Shown piece after piece: positions 1-9,035 of a stretch of DNA of 64,000 bases. This DNA is from Nitrososphaerota archaeon (lineage in GTDB: Archaea > Thermoproteota > Nitrososphaeria > PSMU01). Positions within the stretch are counted from its first letter, which is position 1; each line of letters opens with the position of its first letter. Below the pieces are notes generated by a model. The model searched no databases. It was not told where the DNA came from and saw nothing but the letters and a program-made list of their open reading frames with translations. Where the stretch lies: assembly GCA_040290255.1 (NCBI GenBank), contig PSMU01000001.1, positions 198,723 to 262,722 of the forward strand. The letters are read 5' to 3'. A program made the translations under genes and the position numbers.

Positions 1-609
1 CGCGCTGCCCAGCGCGCTCCTCTTGGCATGTCTGCCGAGGCCCCCCTTGAACCTCTCCTCCAGCCATACGTTTCCCCTCTCATGATAGCCGTAGGCCTCC
101 CAGTAGCCATCCCTATATGCCTCCATGAACTCGATCCTCGTAAGCCACTTGGCGCTCTTCCAGCCATAGAGGCTGGGTATGAAGGGCCTGGCCGGGAAGC
201 CCTGCTCCGGGGCCAGGGGCCTGCCGTTCATGCGCAGCGCGATGATGGCCTCCTCGCCCAGGGCATCCTCTATCGGCACGGGCGCGCTATAGCCATCCAG
301 GCAGTGGAACATGACCCATGTGGCCCTGGGGCTCACGCCCGCCTCCTGCGCCAGCTGCCTGATGGGCACGCCCTCCCAGGCCACATCCCTTATGCTCCAC
401 TTCGTGACGCAGTGAAAGGAGGCGACATAGCGCTTCAGCTCCCTAGCGAGCAGCTGCCCATAGGTGAGCTCGAGCGGCCTCTCCACCAGGCCTTCTACCC
501 TTAGCCTCCAGGATTGTATGTCGACGCGCGGCACGCCCAGCGCCGCGTAGATGATGAACCTCCTTCCCCAGACCTGGCCCGGAGGGAGGGACTGAGCCTT
601 TGGCTCCAT
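1..609 (-). CDS. molybdopterin-dependent oxidoreductase, sulfite-oxidase family (partial; C-terminus runs off window start)
   Basis: Manual minus-strand translation: MEPKAQSLPPGQVWGRRFIIYAALGVPRVDIQSWRLRVEGLVERPLELTYGQLL...FHCVTKWSIRDVAWEGVPI...LRMNGRPLAPEQGFPARPFIPSLYGWKSAKWLTRIEF, typical Moco-domain motifs; no stop before position 1; alternative in-frame ATG at 684. Not in ORF track because it has no stop in window. Confidence 0.6.
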   Translation of the reverse strand, partial: MEPKAQSLPPGQVWGRRFIIYAALGVPRVDIQSWRLRVEGLVERPLELTYGQLLARELKRYVASFHCVTKWSIRDVAWEGVPIRQLAQEAGVSPRATWVMFHCLDGYSAPVPIEDALGEEAIIALRMNGRPLAPEQGFPARPFIPSLYGWKSAKWLTRIEFMEAYRDGYWEAYGYHERGNVWLEERFKGGLGRHAKRSALGSA

Positions 610-718
610 GCGCGAGCATGCGGGGGCAGGAAGATAAGCCTTGATGCCTCGCGCTATGGTGAAAGGGGGGCAAGCATGGCCATGAAAAGGCTTTTAGTGG
701 CGGAGAGGAGGCGGGGCG

Positions 719-910
719 ATGGCGGCCCTCATCCTCGGCTTTGAGCCCTTTCAGGAGTACGATGAGAACCCCTCCCAGCTCGTGGCGGAGCGCCTGGGCG
801 GGAGGAGCATGGCAGGGGAGAGGGTGGTGGGGCGCGTGCTGCGCCTAGGGCTCGGGGTACATTGCTCCTCCTCCGGGGGTCTCCAAGATGACTTCATCGC
901 CCGGCTCTAG
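719..910 (+). pseudogene. N-terminal remnant of pyrrolidone-carboxylate (pyroglutamyl) peptidase-like gene
   Basis: 63 aa ORF; first ~40 aa MAALILGFEPFQEYDENPSQLVAERL...GERVVG match the Pcp N-terminus pattern (GFEPFgg..NPSwe); rest of the Pcp body absent; overlaps 3' end of convergent hyuB. Confidence 0.35.
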
Positions 911-2410
911 CTCGAGCGTGCACTTGCTGGGCAGCGCCAATTCTTGGCCCTTAGCTCTCCTGACGTGGGCGGCGCCCGGCCTTCCGGCTTCACCTCCCCA
1001 GAGCCCCCAGGGAGGGTTCCTGAACCTATCGGCCAGCAGCGAGAGCCTGCAGCGCTCCAGCACCCTGAAGGCCCTCACTATGCCATCCCCCCCTCTATAC
1101 CTGCCGCGGCCGCCGCTGCCCTCCCTTATCCTGTAGGCGGTGAAGAGCAGCGGATAGGCCCTCTCGGCCACCTCGATGGGCGTGTTGAGCGTATTGGTCA
1201 TGTTCACCTGCACGGCCGATACGCCGTGCCGGCCGGGCCTTGCGCCGGTGCCGCCTCCTATCGTCTCATAGTAGGCCCAGGGGCCCGCTGGCCCCACGCC
1301 CCCCAGGAGCACGTTCATCATCGTGCCGGAGCCCGCCGCGGGTATCCTGTGGGGCAGCGCTTGCGCCAAGGCCCTGAAGGCCACGTCCGCCACCCTCTGG
1401 CTCGTCTCGAGGTTACCGCCCGCCACGGGCGCAGGGCGGTGGGGGTTAACCAGGCTCCCAAGGGGCGCCCGCACCTCTATGAGCGCGTAGAAGCCCTCGT
1501 TCGTGGGCACCTCTCGCTCCAGCGCGCACCTCACCGCGAAGGCGGTGGCCGAATAGGTGACGCCGTAGACGGCGTTGAGCGGCGCCTCCACCTCCTGATC
1601 CGTGCCCGTGAAGTCCGCCCTTATGCCTCGCTCGCCTATCTGCAGCCTCAGCCTTATCCTGAGGTCCCGCTCGCCCAGCTCCAAATAATCCTCGGCCTCA
1701 TAGGTGCCCGCCCGCCAGGAGCCCATCTGGCGCAACGCCAGCTCGCGCCCGTGGGCCAGCGCCCTCTCCCATGCCTCCCTCAGGGCCTCGAGGCCCCTGC
1801 GCTCCAGCAGCTCCTGCAGCATCCTTATCCCCCTGAGGTTGGCGGCCAGCTGCGCGCCCAGGTCGCCCCTGCTCACGTGCGCCGCCTTCACGTTGGCCTC
1901 TATCAGGCCCAGCAGCCCCTCATCGAGATGCCCGGCCCTGACGAGCCTTACGGGCGGTATGATGAGGCCCTCCTCGTAGAGGGTCCTGGCCTGGGGGTTT
2001 ATGCTGCCGGGCACGGGCCCGCCTATGTCCACGTGGTGGGCCTTGTTCACCACATAGGCCACCACCTCTCCCCTATAATACACCGGGGCCAGCAGCATGA
2101 CGTCGTTGAGGTGTGTGCCCGAGATGTAGGGGTCGTTGAGCGCCAGCATATCCCCCTCGCCCAGCTCGAGGCCCTCCTTCTCGAGCCAGGAGAGCGCGTT
2201 GGAGAGGCCTACCCTGAAGGAGCCCAGGTGCACGGGTATGTGCTCGGCCTGGGCCACGATCCTTCCGCGCTCATCGGCTAGGGCGCAGCTGTGGTCCAGC
2301 CTCTCCCTTATGTTGGGCGAGAGCGCGGACCTCTTGAGGGCCACGCCCATCTCCTCGGCTATGAAGGCGGAGGCCCTGTACAGCACCTCCCAGGAAGGAG
2401 GGGACATCAT
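845..2410 (-). CDS. hyuB: hydantoinase B / 5-oxoprolinase subunit B family protein
   Basis: Track ORF 845..2584 trimmed to ATG at 2410 (MMSPPSWEVLYRASAFIAEEMG), which overlaps the hyuA stop; HyuB-family body; ends 5 aa after the GGG motif (TPGGGAMYPEP). Confidence 0.8.
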   Translation of the reverse strand: MMSPPSWEVLYRASAFIAEEMGVALKRSALSPNIRERLDHSCALADERGRIVAQAEHIPVHLGSFRVGLSNALSWLEKEGLELGEGDMLALNDPYISGTHLNDVMLLAPVYYRGEVVAYVVNKAHHVDIGGPVPGSINPQARTLYEEGLIIPPVRLVRAGHLDEGLLGLIEANVKAAHVSRGDLGAQLAANLRGIRMLQELLERRGLEALREAWERALAHGRELALRQMGSWRAGTYEAEDYLELGERDLRIRLRLQIGERGIRADFTGTDQEVEAPLNAVYGVTYSATAFAVRCALEREVPTNEGFYALIEVRAPLGSLVNPHRPAPVAGGNLETSQRVADVAFRALAQALPHRIPAAGSGTMMNVLLGGVGPAGPWAYYETIGGGTGARPGRHGVSAVQVNMTNTLNTPIEVAERAYPLLFTAYRIREGSGGRGRYRGGDGIVRAFRVLERCRLSLLADRFRNPPWGLWGGEAGRPGAAHVRRAKGQELALPSKCTLELEPGDEVILETPGGGAMYPEP

Positions 2411-4365
2411 GCCCTGCGCAGCCTCAGCTCCCCCAGCGGGCCCACATGAAAGGCCCAGCCTCCGGGCACCACGGTGCAGGAGCCGTACTCCTCCACGAGC
2501 GCGGGCCCCCCATACAGGGCCCCGGGCTTCAGGGCCTCCCTTCGGTAGACCGTTGAAAGGTGCCATTCGCCCCCCGCCAGGCACCTCCTCCGCCCGCTCA
2601 CGGCCTCGCCCTTGGGAGACGGGGGCATGAGCCTGGGCCTGGGCCGGCGAAGGATGCCGTGGACCCTGATGGTGACCACTTCTATGCGATGCTTTAGCGT
2701 GAAGCCGAAGGTGGCCAGGTGCTTCTGCTCAAAGCTCTCCTGCACCTGCCGCTCCGAGCAGGGCCTGGGCACGGGCAGCGTGAGCTCCCAGCCCTGCCCC
2801 TCATACCTTACGTCGGCATACCTGACAAAATAATCCACGCGGCCCAGCCTGGAGCTGAGCCGGGCCTCGAGCTCGGCATACGCGCTCTCCAGGGCCCTGG
2901 GGAAGGAGGCCCTTGCCTCGAACCTCCAATCGGCGAGCAGCAGGCCCAGCGCGCTGAAGGCGCCAGGGTGAGGCGGTATGATGACCTGGCGAATGCCCAG
3001 CTCCTGGGCCAGCTCGGCGGCATGCTGGGGCCCCGCGCCCCCGAAGGCGATGAGCGAAAACCTCCCCGGCTCCAGCCCCCTCTCCACCGTGACGAGCCTT
3101 ATCGCCCTGGCCATCTCCACGTTGATCAGCTCTATCGCGCTCCTGGCCACCTCGAGCGGCTCGCCCAGCCCGGAGAGCGCCCTGAGCGCTGCCGCGACGT
3201 CGAGCCTGAGCTCCCCTCCCAGCAGGCATTCGCCTATCCTGCCCAGGGCCAGGTTTGCGTCGGTGATGGTGGGCTGGGCGCCGCCCCTTCCATAACATGC
3301 GGGGCCCGGCTCCGCCCCCGCGCTCAAGGGCCCGACCCTCTGCGCGCCCGCTTCATCCCTCCAGATGATGGTCCCCCCTCCCGCGGAGACCTCGGCCACG
3401 TCCACGAAGGGGAACCGGACGGGATAGCCCGAGCCCTTCACGAGCCTGCCGTGGTGTGCCTCGCCGCCCACCTCATACTCGCCGGTGACCTGCACCTCTC
3501 CCTCCACGATGGTGCCGGCCTTGGCCGTGGTGCCGCCCATATCCAGGCTGATGGCCTGGCCCTCGTTCATCATCCTGGCCAGCTCCGCGGCCGCCACCAC
3601 ACCCGCCGCGGGCCCGCTCTCGATCAGCTGCACGGGCCTCGCCGCCGCCTCCTCGGGGTCCACGAGCCCCCCTGAGCTCGACATGATGTGCAGCGCGCTC
3701 GACCTTAATGCGCCGCGCAGCCGTCCGAGGTAGCCGGAGATGAGCGGCATGAGGGCGGCGTTCACCACGGCCGTGGACGTCCTTTCGTACTCCCTGGGCT
3801 CAGGGGCCACGTCATGGGAGAGCGTGATGTGCTTTACCGCCCCGCGCAGCGCTTCTCCGGCCCTGAGCTCGTGCCGGGGGTTGGCGTAGGAGTGCAGGAA
3901 GCCGATGGCCAAGGCCTCGACGCCCCTGGCCCTGAGCTGCTCCTTAACCTGCTCCAGCTCCTCCTCGTTGAGCGGCAACAGCACATTGCCCTGCGCGGTA
4001 ACCCTCTCGCCCACCTCGAACCTGAGCTCCTTCGGGACCAGGGGCCTGGGCCGCTCAAAGAAGGGGTCGTACAGCTTGGGCCTGTTCTGCCTCCCTATCT
4101 CTATTATATCCCCGAAGCCCTTCGTGGTGAGGAGCGCGACCCTGGGCAGCTCGAGCCCAATCTGCCCCCTGAGCGCGTTCGTGGCCACCGTGGAGGCATG
4201 CAGCACCTCGCCGACGGGGCCCACCCTCTCCAGCCCCTCGAGCACCACGCCCTCCGGCTCCCGCGGGCGCGTCAGGGCCTTGAAGGAGCGCAGCTCCCCT
4301 CCTTCATCGACGTACACGAAGTCCGTGAAGGTTCCTCCCACGTCGACGGCCACGGCGAGGGGCAT
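2407..4365 (-). CDS. hyuA: hydantoinase A / 5-oxoprolinase subunit A family protein (ATP-dependent)
   Basis: 652 aa; N-terminus MPLAVAVDVGGTFTDFVYVD is the typical HyuA/ASKHA ATPase start; stop overlaps hyuB start (ATGA). Confidence 0.85.
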   Translation of the reverse strand: MPLAVAVDVGGTFTDFVYVDEGGELRSFKALTRPREPEGVVLEGLERVGPVGEVLHASTVATNALRGQIGLELPRVALLTTKGFGDIIEIGRQNRPKLYDPFFERPRPLVPKELRFEVGERVTAQGNVLLPLNEEELEQVKEQLRARGVEALAIGFLHSYANPRHELRAGEALRGAVKHITLSHDVAPEPREYERTSTAVVNAALMPLISGYLGRLRGALRSSALHIMSSSGGLVDPEEAAARPVQLIESGPAAGVVAAAELARMMNEGQAISLDMGGTTAKAGTIVEGEVQVTGEYEVGGEAHHGRLVKGSGYPVRFPFVDVAEVSAGGGTIIWRDEAGAQRVGPLSAGAEPGPACYGRGGAQPTITDANLALGRIGECLLGGELRLDVAAALRALSGLGEPLEVARSAIELINVEMARAIRLVTVERGLEPGRFSLIAFGGAGPQHAAELAQELGIRQVIIPPHPGAFSALGLLLADWRFEARASFPRALESAYAELEARLSSRLGRVDYFVRYADVRYEGQGWELTLPVPRPCSERQVQESFEQKHLATFGFTLKHRIEVVTIRVHGILRRPRPRLMPPSPKGEAVSGRRRCLAGGEWHLSTVYRREALKPGALYGGPALVEEYGSCTVVPGGWAFHVGPLGELRLRRA

Positions 4366-4521: not shown

Positions 4522-5979
4522 CTAGGGCCCTGCTGGCTCCTCCCTGGGGCCCGCCGCGGCCAGGTTCTGCAGGATGATGGCGAAGGAGGCCTCCATGCTC
4601 AGCAGCCCGCCGGTGGGCCCCCCTTCGGCCACCACCAGGTACTCGTTGGGCGAGTGCGCCAGCCCGCCATGGCCCAGCCCTCCTTCCACGAAGGGGAGGC
4701 CCAGAGGAGGGGCGGCGAAGAGCGAGAAGGGCGCGCTGCCCGCGAGCGTGGGCCAGACCTCCACCTCCTTCCCCAGGGCCCTATAGGCCTCGCGCACCGC
4801 CTTGGCATACTTGTGGCCGTAGGGCATGCGGGCCGGGGGATAGCCCACATCGAGGGGCCGGAGCTCCACCTCCGGAAAGCCCCTCCTGTTCAGGTGGTCC
4901 CTGATCATGGGCAGCACCCTCTCCACCTTCATATTCGGCACGAGCCTTACGTCCATCTTCACGGTGATCTTATGGGGCAGGAGGGTCTTTGAGCCCGGCC
5001 CTATATAGCCTCCCCAGATGCCATCTATGTTCAGCGTGGGGCTGAAGAGGTAGAGCTTCAGCGCCTCCTCGCCGCTGGCATCGCCTATGAACTTGCTCAC
5101 CCTCAGCTGCTCCTTCATGGCGGCCTCATCGAAGACCTTGGCCAGCTCCCTCACGAGCCTCAGGTCCTCCTGCGTGGGCACGGCCACATCATCGTAGAAG
5201 CCCTCGATGAGCACCCTGTTGCCATCGGGCGAGGTCATGGTCGCGAGCGCCTGTATCATCCTCCAGGCGGGGCTGTCCACCCAGGCCTTGTTGCTGCCAT
5301 GTATGCCGAACTCCAGGGGCCCCCTTCCCCACTTCGCTCCATCGAGCTCGAGCTCAAAGTACACGATCCCCTTCACGCCAAGGTGCTGGACGGCCCTTCC
5401 CCTCCTGTTCTCGGAGGGGATGGGGAAGAAGAGCAGGTCGGCCTTGGAGAGCTCGCCCTTCATGGCCTCAATGAACTCCGGCAGGTGCCTGCTGCCCAGC
5501 TCCTCCTCGCCCTCTATCGCGAAGATGAGGTTCACGGGCAGCTCCCCGCTCACCTCCCTTATCGCCTCGCAGGCGTTGAGGAAGCCGGCCAGCGCGCCCT
5601 TCGTGTTATAGGCGCCCCTGGCTACAAGGCAGGCGCCAAAGGGCTCGAGCTCGATGACCCTGCCCTCAAAGGGGGGCACCCTCCACGAGGGCTCATCGGC
5701 GGGCTGTGTATCATACATGCCGTAGAGCAGCACCGTCAGGGGGGCGCCCGCATCATAGGTTCCGAAGACGACGGGGTTTCCCGAGGTCTCCACCAGCCTG
5801 GCATCCTCGCAGCCCAGCTCCTTTAGGTAGCGCCTCACGAGCTCGGCGCACTCCCTTATCCCCCTATCCTCGGGGCTCACTGAGGGCTGCCTCACGAGCT
5901 CCTGGAGCCTCCTCAGATGCCGCTCATAGCGGCCCTTCAGGTAAGCGATGAGCCTTCCCTGATCGAGGGCCTTGGGCAC
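4522..5979 (-). CDS. M20-family metallo-amidohydrolase (possibly N-carbamoyl-amino-acid amidohydrolase-like)
   Basis: 485 aa; M20 motifs (GAYNTKGALAGF, IEGEEELGS); directly upstream of hyuAB on the same strand. Confidence 0.75.
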   Translation of the reverse strand: MPKALDQGRLIAYLKGRYERHLRRLQELVRQPSVSPEDRGIRECAELVRRYLKELGCEDARLVETSGNPVVFGTYDAGAPLTVLLYGMYDTQPADEPSWRVPPFEGRVIELEPFGACLVARGAYNTKGALAGFLNACEAIREVSGELPVNLIFAIEGEEELGSRHLPEFIEAMKGELSKADLLFFPIPSENRRGRAVQHLGVKGIVYFELELDGAKWGRGPLEFGIHGSNKAWVDSPAWRMIQALATMTSPDGNRVLIEGFYDDVAVPTQEDLRLVRELAKVFDEAAMKEQLRVSKFIGDASGEEALKLYLFSPTLNIDGIWGGYIGPGSKTLLPHKITVKMDVRLVPNMKVERVLPMIRDHLNRRGFPEVELRPLDVGYPPARMPYGHKYAKAVREAYRALGKEVEVWPTLAGSAPFSLFAAPPLGLPFVEGGLGHGGLAHSPNEYLVVAEGGPTGGLLSMEASFAIILQNLAAAGPREEPAGP

Positions 5980-6002: not shown

Positions 6003-9000
6003 TTAAGCCCTGCCCTCTGTCCCCCGCCTTGCCTTGGCCCTCCTGAGCGCATAGGCGGCTAGGGCGGACAGGGCCGCGAGGCCCCCGGCCATGGCCGCGA
6101 GGGCGGGGATGTTGTACGAGAAGGCGGCGCCCAGGGCCTGGGGCGAGCTGACGACGAGCGAGATGGAGGAGGAGGTGGCGTTGACCGCGCCCGACCAGCC
6201 CCTAAAGGCATACAGGAAGCTCGAGGGCCTGGCGCGGAGCTCTATGGCGCTTCCCGGGGGCACGTAGAGCGTCTGCGCGCCCGTTATGGTCCCCGAGCCG
6301 GCGCCGTAGCTATAGTCCACGTATCCCGGCCCGGTGATGGAGATGGCCAGGCCCGGATAGAAGAGCGCGGTCTCGTTCAGCGGCGCGCTCACGCGCACCA
6401 GCGCGGAGCTGGAGGGGCCCGAGAAGGCGCCGGGGCCCTCGCCCCGCCATCCCTGGAACCGCCATCCCTGCTGGGCGCTCGCCGAGAGCTGAAGCGCTTG
6501 AGAGGCGTTATACCAGCCGCTTTGGGGGCTCACCTGGCCTCCCGCCTCGGGCTCGGCGCGCACGAAGACATAGTACTGATGATAATATGCGGGCGCTATG
6601 GTGCCGGGCATCGTTATCTGGCCCTGGGGCTGTGGGGCATACCACCGCTCGCGGCCGGCGCTGCCCGGCAGCAGCTGAGGATATGAGTAGGTGGACCCCG
6701 CATCGGCCCAGGCGGGGACAGGGCCCGAGGAGCTCAGCGGGAGTTGCAGCGGCCTGCCAAGGCTGAAGAGGCTGACCGTGGGCGGCGAAGAGCCGCTGTG
6801 CCCTCCAATGATGACATAGCCGAAGGAGACGAGGTACTGATGGTGGTATGTTATGGCCAGCTCCAGCGGCCCCGCGAGCAGGCCCATATTTGCGGCATTG
6901 GCCTGCCACCTCTCATTCTGGGTCAAAGCCTGCAGCGTGGCCGGAAAGGAGTAGGGCGAGCCGGCATCGGCCCAGACCTGGGCTGGCCGTTCTGAAAGCG
7001 TGAGCGTGGAGCTCAGGCCCAGCGATATATAGCTCAAGGAGGGAGGCGGAGGCGCGCCGCCCCCGCTGACCGAATACGATATGGTGAGCAGGTACTGGTG
7101 GTAGTAGAGCGCCTTATAAAGAAGGGGCCCCGTGATGTAGCCCGAGGCGTTGGGCGCATACCACCTTTCGCCCTGCCCCCCGGCCATGACGGCCTCAAAG
7201 CTGTAGCCGGAGCGCGCGTCGGCCCAGGCCATCACGCCGCCGGCGGAGGAGGGCATGGAGCTGGCCAGGCCAAAGCTGGAGAAGGTAACTAGGGGCGGGC
7301 CAAAGGCGGAGCCATCGCTGGAGGCGTGCGCGAAGGTCACCAGATACTGATGATAGAAGGAAAAGGCCATGGTCAGGGGCTGCAGCGCGGTGCCGTTGGC
7401 GGGCTGATGGGTGGCCCACCTCTCGAGGCCGCCGGGCGAATAGAGGCTCGGCGTCACGCTCCAGGGCGTGCCATAGTCCGCCCGGTAGGTGGTGGGGACC
7501 CGGCTCAGGGGGGCCTTGATGGTCATGCCATCGGATACATATGTGAGCAGCGGCGGGCTAGGGGGCTCAGGGCCGTTAGGCACTATGTAGCTGAGCGTGA
7601 GGCTCACCTTCGGTATGACCATGCTCGCCCTGCTGATGAAGGTGGCCCAGCCCTGCGGCGTTCCGTATTCGCCAGCAAGCCAGACCGAGGAGGGGTCCGA
7701 TGGATCATCGCTGGCCCCAAAGTAATCGCCGTAGCGGCAGACGTTGGGTGGCACGAGGAAGCCGCAGACCGTCTGCTCGGGCCCGCTGCCCTGTCTTATG
7801 GCGCTCAAGGAGGCGAGGAGCGAGCTGGGGTCCTCGAAGGGGGCAAGGCCCGCGGCCCCCAGGCTGGGGTAGGAGGAGCTGGAGGAGTAGCCGAAGGCCA
7901 TGTAGAGGTTCGAGCGACCATCCAAGGCCAGGGCGGGGTAAAAGAGATAGAGGCCAGGGCCCGCGTGCACAGTAAAGTCGATGGGGGCCACGAGCGCGCT
8001 CAGGTCGGCCTTCACGAGCCTGAAGCAGGACCTGGGCTGGACATCGCCAGGAGGGGTACAGGCCTCGTTAAAGGTGAGCCAGAGCGCGTTGCCCGAAAGT
8101 ATGGCCGCCTGGGGCCTGAAATCTCCCGTATGCAGCAGCTTATCCGTGCCCCGCTGGGGCGCATCAGGAGGCGCTTGGGCGCTGCGTATGCCCACGTCGA
8201 GCCTGGCCAGCGAGACGGGCGCGGGCGGCACGCCCTGCACCCTGAACAGGGCCAAGGTGCCGCCGCAGTACATTACGCAGGCCATGTAGGCGAAGGTCGA
8301 GGGGCCCCTGGGGCGGGTCGGATGCAGCGAAAAGAACTCGGCATAGGGGCCCAAGGCAGCATAGCGCACGCTCGTTCCGGAGAGCAGGTCGGCCTTATTC
8401 AGCACCCACACGTAGGCGCCCAGGAAGGAGCTGAGGCTTGGCAGCGAGAAGAGGTTGGCCGAGAGCACCACCTGGCCATCGCTGAACCCCAGCATGGGCT
8501 GGTCTGGCGCCGTGCCGGGCGGGGCGGGCAGCGCATATACCCGCCAGGCAGAGGTGGGGTCCGAGGACGAGGAGATGGCGAAGAGCACCGCGCTGGAGGT
8601 GAAGTCAAATGCGGAGGCATACCACCTCCCGGCGCCCGCATCGAAAGCGAGCTGGGGGTCGCCGATATGGTGCCATCTTGGCGCGCCGAAGAAGGAGTAG
8701 AGATCCCTGGCCATGAGGGGCGTGCCGTCCTTCAGCCAGACGCTGAGCTGCAGGTTCACCATCTCCGCTACATGCAGCGGCCCGACGGCCAGCTGCACGT
8801 CCGGCGGCGCGGTCTTAAGGAGGCTTGAGGCATAGCTTATGCCCTCGAAGGCCTGCGCGAAGTGCAGGTTTGCCTGGCTCGGGGCGGGCGCCTGCGTAGC
8901 GGCCGGCCCTGGGCCCTCGGCGCCCCTTGAAGCCAGCGCTGGCGCGGAACCTGGAGGGCCCTGGGCGAGCGCGGCGGGCAGGAGCAGGAGGAGCGCCAGC

Positions 9001-9035
9001 AGGGGCAGGAGCCCCCTCACAGGGCCAAATGGCAA
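6003..9035 (-). CDS. large secreted, C-terminally membrane-anchored surface protein with tandem repeat domains
   Basis: 1010 aa; N-terminal signal peptide (LLPLLALLLLLPAALAQG); at least four ~75 aa repeats with recurring YHHQYL / WADAGS.YS / ERW.A motifs; C-terminal hydrophobic helix followed by RRAKARR. Confidence 0.7.
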   Translation of the reverse strand: MPFGPVRGLLPLLALLLLLPAALAQGPPGSAPALASRGAEGPGPAATQAPAPSQANLHFAQAFEGISYASSLLKTAPPDVQLAVGPLHVAEMVNLQLSVWLKDGTPLMARDLYSFFGAPRWHHIGDPQLAFDAGAGRWYASAFDFTSSAVLFAISSSSDPTSAWRVYALPAPPGTAPDQPMLGFSDGQVVLSANLFSLPSLSSFLGAYVWVLNKADLLSGTSVRYAALGPYAEFFSLHPTRPRGPSTFAYMACVMYCGGTLALFRVQGVPPAPVSLARLDVGIRSAQAPPDAPQRGTDKLLHTGDFRPQAAILSGNALWLTFNEACTPPGDVQPRSCFRLVKADLSALVAPIDFTVHAGPGLYLFYPALALDGRSNLYMAFGYSSSSSYPSLGAAGLAPFEDPSSLLASLSAIRQGSGPEQTVCGFLVPPNVCRYGDYFGASDDPSDPSSVWLAGEYGTPQGWATFISRASMVIPKVSLTLSYIVPNGPEPPSPPLLTYVSDGMTIKAPLSRVPTTYRADYGTPWSVTPSLYSPGGLERWATHQPANGTALQPLTMAFSFYHQYLVTFAHASSDGSAFGPPLVTFSSFGLASSMPSSAGGVMAWADARSGYSFEAVMAGGQGERWYAPNASGYITGPLLYKALYYHQYLLTISYSVSGGGAPPPPSLSYISLGLSSTLTLSERPAQVWADAGSPYSFPATLQALTQNERWQANAANMGLLAGPLELAITYHHQYLVSFGYVIIGGHSGSSPPTVSLFSLGRPLQLPLSSSGPVPAWADAGSTYSYPQLLPGSAGRERWYAPQPQGQITMPGTIAPAYYHQYYVFVRAEPEAGGQVSPQSGWYNASQALQLSASAQQGWRFQGWRGEGPGAFSGPSSSALVRVSAPLNETALFYPGLAISITGPGYVDYSYGAGSGTITGAQTLYVPPGSAIELRARPSSFLYAFRGWSGAVNATSSSISLVVSSPQALGAAFSYNIPALAAMAGGLAALSALAAYALRRAKARRGTEGRA

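Follow-up and report, generated by a model that had tools for sequence, protein, structure and literature searches.

The left end of the window (the whole 64-kb stretch of DNA analysed) carries a molybdopterin oxidoreductase gene, a remnant of the pyroglutamyl peptidase I gene (pcp) that is transcriptionally divergent from it, and, converging on this remnant, the genes hyuB and hyuA together with an M20-family peptidase gene. These features, some of which were delimited by comparison with L085, a contig of a sister lineage, are as follows.

1..609, minus strand: sulfite-oxidase-family molybdopterin oxidoreductase (YedY/MsrP-like), 203 aa (Pfam Oxidored_molyb, E 4.3e-45)
610..718, no strand: divergent intergenic spacer, 109 nt in the window and in L085 alike
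719..842, plus strand: pcp remnant, corresponding to codons 1–41 of a pyroglutamyl peptidase I gene (Pfam C15, NF009672 and comparison with L085)
719..910, plus strand: 63-aa ORF with an ATG start, whose residues 42–63 result from chance read-through into hyuB in antisense
842..845, no strand: breakpoint interval between the pcp-derived DNA and the hyuB 3' end (alignment with L085; hyuB stop codon at 845–847)
845..2410, minus strand: hyuB, hydantoinase B/oxoprolinase B subunit, 521 aa (Pfam Hydantoinase_B, E 3e-182)
2407..4365, minus strand: hyuA, hydantoinase A/oxoprolinase A subunit, 652 aa (Pfam Hydant_A_N, Hydantoinase_A and Hydant_A_C)
4522..5979, minus strand: M20-family metallopeptidase/dipeptidase upstream of hyuAB, 485 aa (Pfam Peptidase_M20 and M20_dimer)

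The oxidoreductase gene, the stop codon of which directly precedes window position 1, was called as a 203-aa protein in all related contigs. Within its coding sequence, five of the seven consecutive bases at 337..343 differ from L085 (GCCCGCC in the window versus CTTTGCT), forming a small substitution cluster. At the other side of the locus, the ATG of hyuB at 2410 overlaps the stop codon of hyuA in an ATGA-type coupling, and the partner subunit HyuA is thus encoded immediately adjacent. The mechanically defined hyuB ORF (845..2584, minus strand) begins at a GTG located 58 codons upstream, within hyuA; the homologues and all gene calls placed the start at ATG 2410 and not at that GTG. The M20 gene was found on the same strand as hyuAB and upstream of them, as had been described before, and it also matched the NCBIfam dipeptidase models PRK06446 and PRK08201, each below its cut-off. 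Beyond it, the region 6003..9035 (minus strand) encodes a large secreted or surface protein having repeated ...YHQYLV... modules, for which a weak match to Pfam Flg_new_2 was obtained in related contigs. The length of this protein differs among 99.9%-identical strains (1010 aa for the ORF in the window, 1005 aa in L074 and 931 aa in L075), and these differences may be due in part to the choice of start codon or to small indels.

In the preliminary description, the 63-aa ORF was proposed to keep only the first ~40 residues of a pyroglutamyl peptidase-like protein and then to run antisense into hyuB, and profile searches corroborated this assignment. Residues 2–41 of the ORF matched positions 2–41 of the 204 positions of Pfam Peptidase_C15 (E 2.2e-5, 25 bits, above the cut-off of 22.7 bits), and residues 1–42 matched positions 1–42 of the 209 positions of NCBIfam NF009672 (pyroglutamyl-peptidase I, E 1.1e-9). 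The N-terminal GFEPF...NPS segment was present, ILGFEPFQEYDENPSQ being alignable with four Pcp sequences as well as with the Pfam and NCBIfam profiles. Furthermore, the ORF showed 87.8% amino acid identity to residues 1–41 of the L085 Pcp (E 5e-18). Residues 42–63 were without Pcp homology in the comparison with the same protein, and the ORF indeed overlaps the terminal 66 nt of hyuB (845..910) in antisense orientation.

The similarity did not extend to the remainder of the enzyme. The whole-ORF scores against NCBIfam models were 15.6–38 bits, far under their cut-offs of 199–382 bits, and instead of an end-to-end C15 domain of ~200–220 aa, only the N-terminal profile positions given above were covered. 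The Glu-Cys-His set constitutes the catalytic triad of family C15; in the L085 Pcp, Glu79, Cys142 and His164, which align with the ERVAVN, GTYLCN and GFIHVP segments of 1iu8, are all located beyond residue 41. Any product of the stump would consist of a 41-residue Pcp N-terminus followed by 22 residues of antisense-hyuB read-through, and it cannot be a peptidase because it is devoid of the triad and of ~80% of the fold. As for the ORF itself, its length is no evidence, since 8 kb of this DNA, with a GC content of 65–70%, contains 55 ORFs reaching 40 aa or more; it was counted as real because of its Pcp homology, not its length. The product is on record at NCBI as 'hypothetical protein C4339_01275 [Nitrososphaerota archaeon]'.

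A search for relatives of the divergent oxidoreductase led to L085, a 1545-bp Logan contig from SRR24079469, which encodes an oxidoreductase (P0122) 97% identical to that of the window and reaches 73 nt beyond pcp. L085 and window 1..842 could be aligned without gaps at 95.6% DNA identity, and the two sequences are unrelated beyond this point. At the orthologous site, divergent from the oxidoreductase gene behind the same 109-nt spacer, L085 carries a complete pcp gene, whose 216-aa product covers positions 3–199 of the 204 positions of Pfam C15 (E 2.7e-47) and matches PDB 1iu8 (E 5e-40). The search for an intact pcp at a syntenic locus, suggested at the outset, was therefore successful. The homology ends abruptly inside the gene, at nt 842, three bases short of where the hyuB stop codon lies (845–847): following the common GTGCTGC, the window continues with GCCTAGGG and L085 with CCGTGGAT, or, likewise written from the breakpoint onward, with GCCTAGGGCTCGGGG and CCGTGGATCACTCG, respectively. 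With an intact pcp at the orthologous site of the sister lineage, the interval 842–845 is established as a true site of deletion or rearrangement.

The missing part of pcp was not found elsewhere in the 64-kb window: when codons 42–216 were sought, in other frames and antisense to hyuB as well, by blastn with L085 and by tblastn with the L085 Pcp and with the P. furiosus Pcp, only chance-level matches were returned. The 73 nt downstream of the L085 pcp were not found in the window either by blastn or by tblastn. Just past the pcp stop codon in L085, at 1..92 in window orientation, there is a convergent gene that shares 19 nt with the pcp 3' end; its known part comprises 29 residues, ending ...G FGAVNALVSKGRSFQGGPEPRRDGYAASA at the stop codon, had no Pfam match and was absent from the 64-kb window.

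The suspicion, also raised at the outset, that the junction might be an assembly artefact proved unfounded. The 63-aa product was present on 13 contigs, and the same junction was common to at least ten independent assemblies, indicating that it is not a misassembly. In the ten contigs retrieved (ENA ERZ1673964–67; JGI 3300003442 and 3300003453; Logan SRR13254584 and SRR6519253/56/59), the oxidoreductase gene, the stump, hyuB (521 aa), hyuA and the M20 gene were all found in the same arrangement. Because these contigs are 99.8–100% identical to the window and share this arrangement, the deletion was considered to be fixed in the sampled population.

Two further Logan contigs, both 99.8% identical to the window, end exactly at window nt 844, within the breakpoint interval: L073 (SRR29496777, end at 4525) and L089 (SRR29483437, end at 5853). 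A contig end of this kind is the appearance of a branch in a de Bruijn assembly. Repeated k-mers were rejected as the cause of these ends, as none occur in the window. The ends may reflect a second allele in which hyuB and the single base following its stop codon are shared but the sequence then differs. It is conceivable, though improbable, that deleted and undeleted alleles coexist in some hot-spring samples. If true, this would be a live example of ongoing gene loss.

With regard to hyuB, the preliminary description held that the gene stops 5 residues after its GGG motif, that ~30 further residues are usual in the family, and that both convergent genes consequently appear to have lost their 3' ends. 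The actual number of residues after the motif is six (PGGG followed by AMYPEP), and HyuB covers positions 5–514 of the 519 positions of Pfam Hydantoinase_B. We aligned HyuB with 120 homologues; one of them, P0001, is the identical protein, and the other 119 are archaeal proteins of 57–67% identity. In these 119 orthologues, in all of which the C-terminus follows closely upon the PGGGG[WYF]G motif, the tail following PGGG has a minimum of 4 and a median of 7 residues, and it is 6 residues or shorter in 44% of them; their lengths range from 477 to 537 aa (median 519 aa), as compared with 521 aa for the protein in the window. The orthologues thus end at about the same position as HyuB of the window, the domain of which is complete and the length and end of which are typical. 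The earlier claim of a double truncation accordingly stands for pcp, reduced to a stump of codons 1–41, and falls for the full-length hyuB.

Longer C-termini appear to be restricted to distant subfamilies such as caprolactamase-beta, in the profile of which HyuB of the window stops at position 525 of 577, with ~50 further positions beyond, and the expected tail of ~30 residues probably stems from such subfamilies. The motif itself (857..874) reads PGGGAMY in the window versus PGGGG[WYF]G in almost all of the 119 orthologues; the nearest variant, PGGGGLY, was found in three orthologues only (P0028, P0037 and P0054). Given this motif, it is conceivable that a few native C-terminal residues of HyuB have been lost.

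In view of the convergent gene next to pcp in L085, we also considered a model, in our judgement an unlikely one, in which a single deletion of ~600 bp clipped both convergent 3' ends. The converging gene of L085 would then be hyuB having a ~30-residue tail, and the AMYPEP ending of the window would be new sequence made at the junction. This model is in line with the gene order and orientation, which would then be equal in the two lineages only 4.4% apart in DNA, and with the available portion of that gene in L085, which begins with FG after a codon ending in GC and is hence compatible with PGGGG[FWY]G; in addition, a few orthologues do have tails of 17–25 residues, and 'PEP' is present in the same frame in the window and in L085. 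However, the 29 residues showed no significant similarity to the 119 HyuB orthologues, the best local score (37) being close to the mean obtained after shuffling (35.4; p = 0.31), and the top alignments fell outside the HyuB C-terminal tails. Together with the empty Pfam search, this led us to reject the identification of the L085 gene as HyuB from a tail similarity seen by eye. The common 9-mer GGGCTCGGG was likewise discarded as a microhomology or relic, since it is at chance level, with 14.6% of random 28-mers of the genome matching the deleted segment equally well. Moreover, clipping of both genes would require ~23 nt of unexplained filler (843–865). Also against the model, the AMY ending resembles the GLY variant of P0028, P0037 and P0054, and the two Logan contigs described above stop at nt 844 and not at ~866.

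Taking these comparisons together, it is very probable that 719..910 represents a pcp pseudogene stump left by a deletion, and that hyuB, hyuA and the M20 gene are intact. In the mechanism we propose, the ancestor would have possessed a complete pcp of ~216 codons divergent from the molybdopterin oxidoreductase gene. The deletion would have taken pcp from codon 42 onward along with whatever separated pcp and hyuB; at a minimum, the convergent neighbour that pcp has in the sister lineage would have lost its 3' end. The right-hand end of the deletion would lie 1–3 nt beyond the hyuB stop codon. This loss took place after the split from the sister lineage, which is ~4% divergent in DNA. The contact between pcp and hyuB in the window is probably a product of the deletion, because the gene abutting pcp in L085 is unlike HyuB.

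A larger rearrangement having its breakpoint at the same position would be a less likely variant of this mechanism. It would imply that an inversion, a translocation or an insertion of the M20-hyuA-hyuB block split pcp, with the 3' part now outside the window, and we regard this as decidedly improbable. The ancestral state is known on one side only, from L085, and the protein collection contained no HyuB of the 95%-type lineage, both of which leave room for such an event; a search via 90% cluster members for sister-lineage contigs bearing hyuB, hyuA or the M20 gene yielded only members of the 99.8% population or contigs that were too short. On the other hand, the pcp 3' fragment was not found in the 64 kb, and neither repeats nor mobile-element signatures were observed at the junction. 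The GC content showed no step at the junction and so gave no indication of a foreign island. Finally, HyuB and the oxidoreductase are equally far from their nearest homologues (67–70% identity), which disfavours a recent foreign insertion.

The pseudogene reading was also compared with the divergence of the stump. Differences from L085 affect 11 of 124 positions in the stump (8.9%), 8 of 109 in the spacer (7.3%) and 18 of 609 in the oxidoreductase coding sequence (3.0%), the contrast between the stump and the coding sequence being significant (Fisher p = 0.005). When the five amino acid differences in the stump were polarised with outgroup Pcps (L088, L029 and that of P. furiosus), they were spread over both lineages. 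The divergence would fit neutral drift, which with such small counts is suggestive only, and the higher value of the stump could merely be that of a faster-evolving gene. The diversity within the population of 99.8–100% identical contigs is too low for a selection test on the stump.

The spacer contains two A/T-rich elements, GGAAGATAAGCC (629–640) and GGCTTTTAGTGG (689–700), each ~25 nt upstream of one of the start codons, which we infer to be putative archaeal TATA-like promoter elements. The eight spacer differences from L085, at 612, 622, 660, 663, 665, 667, 704 and 717, are all outside both elements. Because the start codon and the upstream spacer have been kept, the stump may still be transcribed. 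It is nonetheless very unlikely that the retained pcp promoter fires an antisense transcript over the hyuB 3' end that serves as a new cis-antisense regulator or encodes a 63-aa micro-protein. If it did, the antisense reading would couple hyuAB expression to the former control signals of pcp. An actual function of the ORF or of such a transcript, whether as a micro-protein or as a cis-antisense RNA over the hyuB 3' end, seems scarcely credible. Compared with L085, neither the start codon nor either of the putative TATA-like elements has changed, and the ORF is identical in 13 contigs; the latter is, however, uninformative, as these contigs differ by at most 0.2% everywhere. Furthermore, the divergence of the stump from L085 is on a level with that of the intergenic spacer, and in a word-indexed search of 5.8 billion protein clusters, which is sensitive to fairly close relatives only, the ORF matched nothing else.

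The proximity of pcp to hyuAB had initially been viewed as functionally suggestive. Pcp releases N-terminal 5-oxoproline from peptides (PMC13274462), and HyuAB-type enzymes include 5-oxoprolinases, hydantoinases and caprolactamase, which use different lactams as substrates (PMC8453981). 5-Oxoproline is therefore no more than a putative substrate of HyuAB at this locus; the orthologues are named either '5-oxoprolinase' or 'N-methylhydantoinase B' in their sources, and no NCBIfam equivalog model was passed.

Among 72 genome loci containing HyuB, Pcp was present in two (L023 and L029), at a distance of ~10 kb; the 9 kb between pcp and hyuB in L029 contains unrelated genes (GNAT, MFS, MscS, glutamine synthetase and others). 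The neighbourhood of the closest HyuB relative outside the population (67% identical) was without pcp. When metagenomes were scanned with the L085 Pcp, L088 (54% identity) was the only relative returned. On this distant contig (JGI Ga0187771_10152736, 258..1898), hyuA (Hydant_A_N and Hydantoinase_A) follows an intact pcp in the same orientation after no more than ~10 nt, and this was the only direct adjacency of pcp and hyuA seen. The proposed pairing of Pcp with an oxoprolinase thus gained from the arrangement in L088 and lost from the rest, namely the pcp neighbour unlike HyuB in L085, the 9-kb distance in L029 and the presence of Pcp in only two of the 72 loci. A pairing of Pcp with a HyuAB-type oxoprolinase accordingly seems plausible but weakly supported.

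Judged from these sequence comparisons, the feature is very probably a genuine and ordinary 5' remnant of a pcp pseudogene, resulting from ordinary gene loss. It matters mainly for annotation: C4339_01275 should be marked as a fragment of a pcp pseudogene, and the annotation of hyuB as intact should stand. The population has lost this copy of pcp while retaining M20-hyuA-hyuB, which adds a minor observation on genome streamlining and on how loosely Pcp and HyuAB-type lactamases are linked in genomes; no open question hinges on the stump.

Three known systems bear comparison with this locus. The stump shares the GFEPF...NPS segment with pyroglutamyl peptidase I (MEROPS C15, PF01470), as represented by the enzymes from P. 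horikoshii (1iu8), T. litoralis (1a2z) and P. furiosus (1iof); unlike these, it keeps 41 of the ~204 profile positions and is without the catalytic Glu, Cys and His, and is hence a fragment rather than an enzyme. The hyuB and hyuA genes of the window encode full-length members of the HyuA/HyuB-type ATP-dependent lactam hydrolases, such as N-methylhydantoinase, OplAB and CapAB, from which HyuB deviates in having PGGGAMY in place of PGGGG[WYF]G and in scoring far below the caprolactamase equivalog cut-offs. With ordinary prokaryotic deletion remnants, the feature has in common the 5' stump, the kept start codon and upstream region, the out-of-context fusion to a neighbour and the intact orthologue in a sister lineage, and it is unusual among them only in that its breakpoint lies no more than 3 nt from the stop codon of the neighbouring gene.
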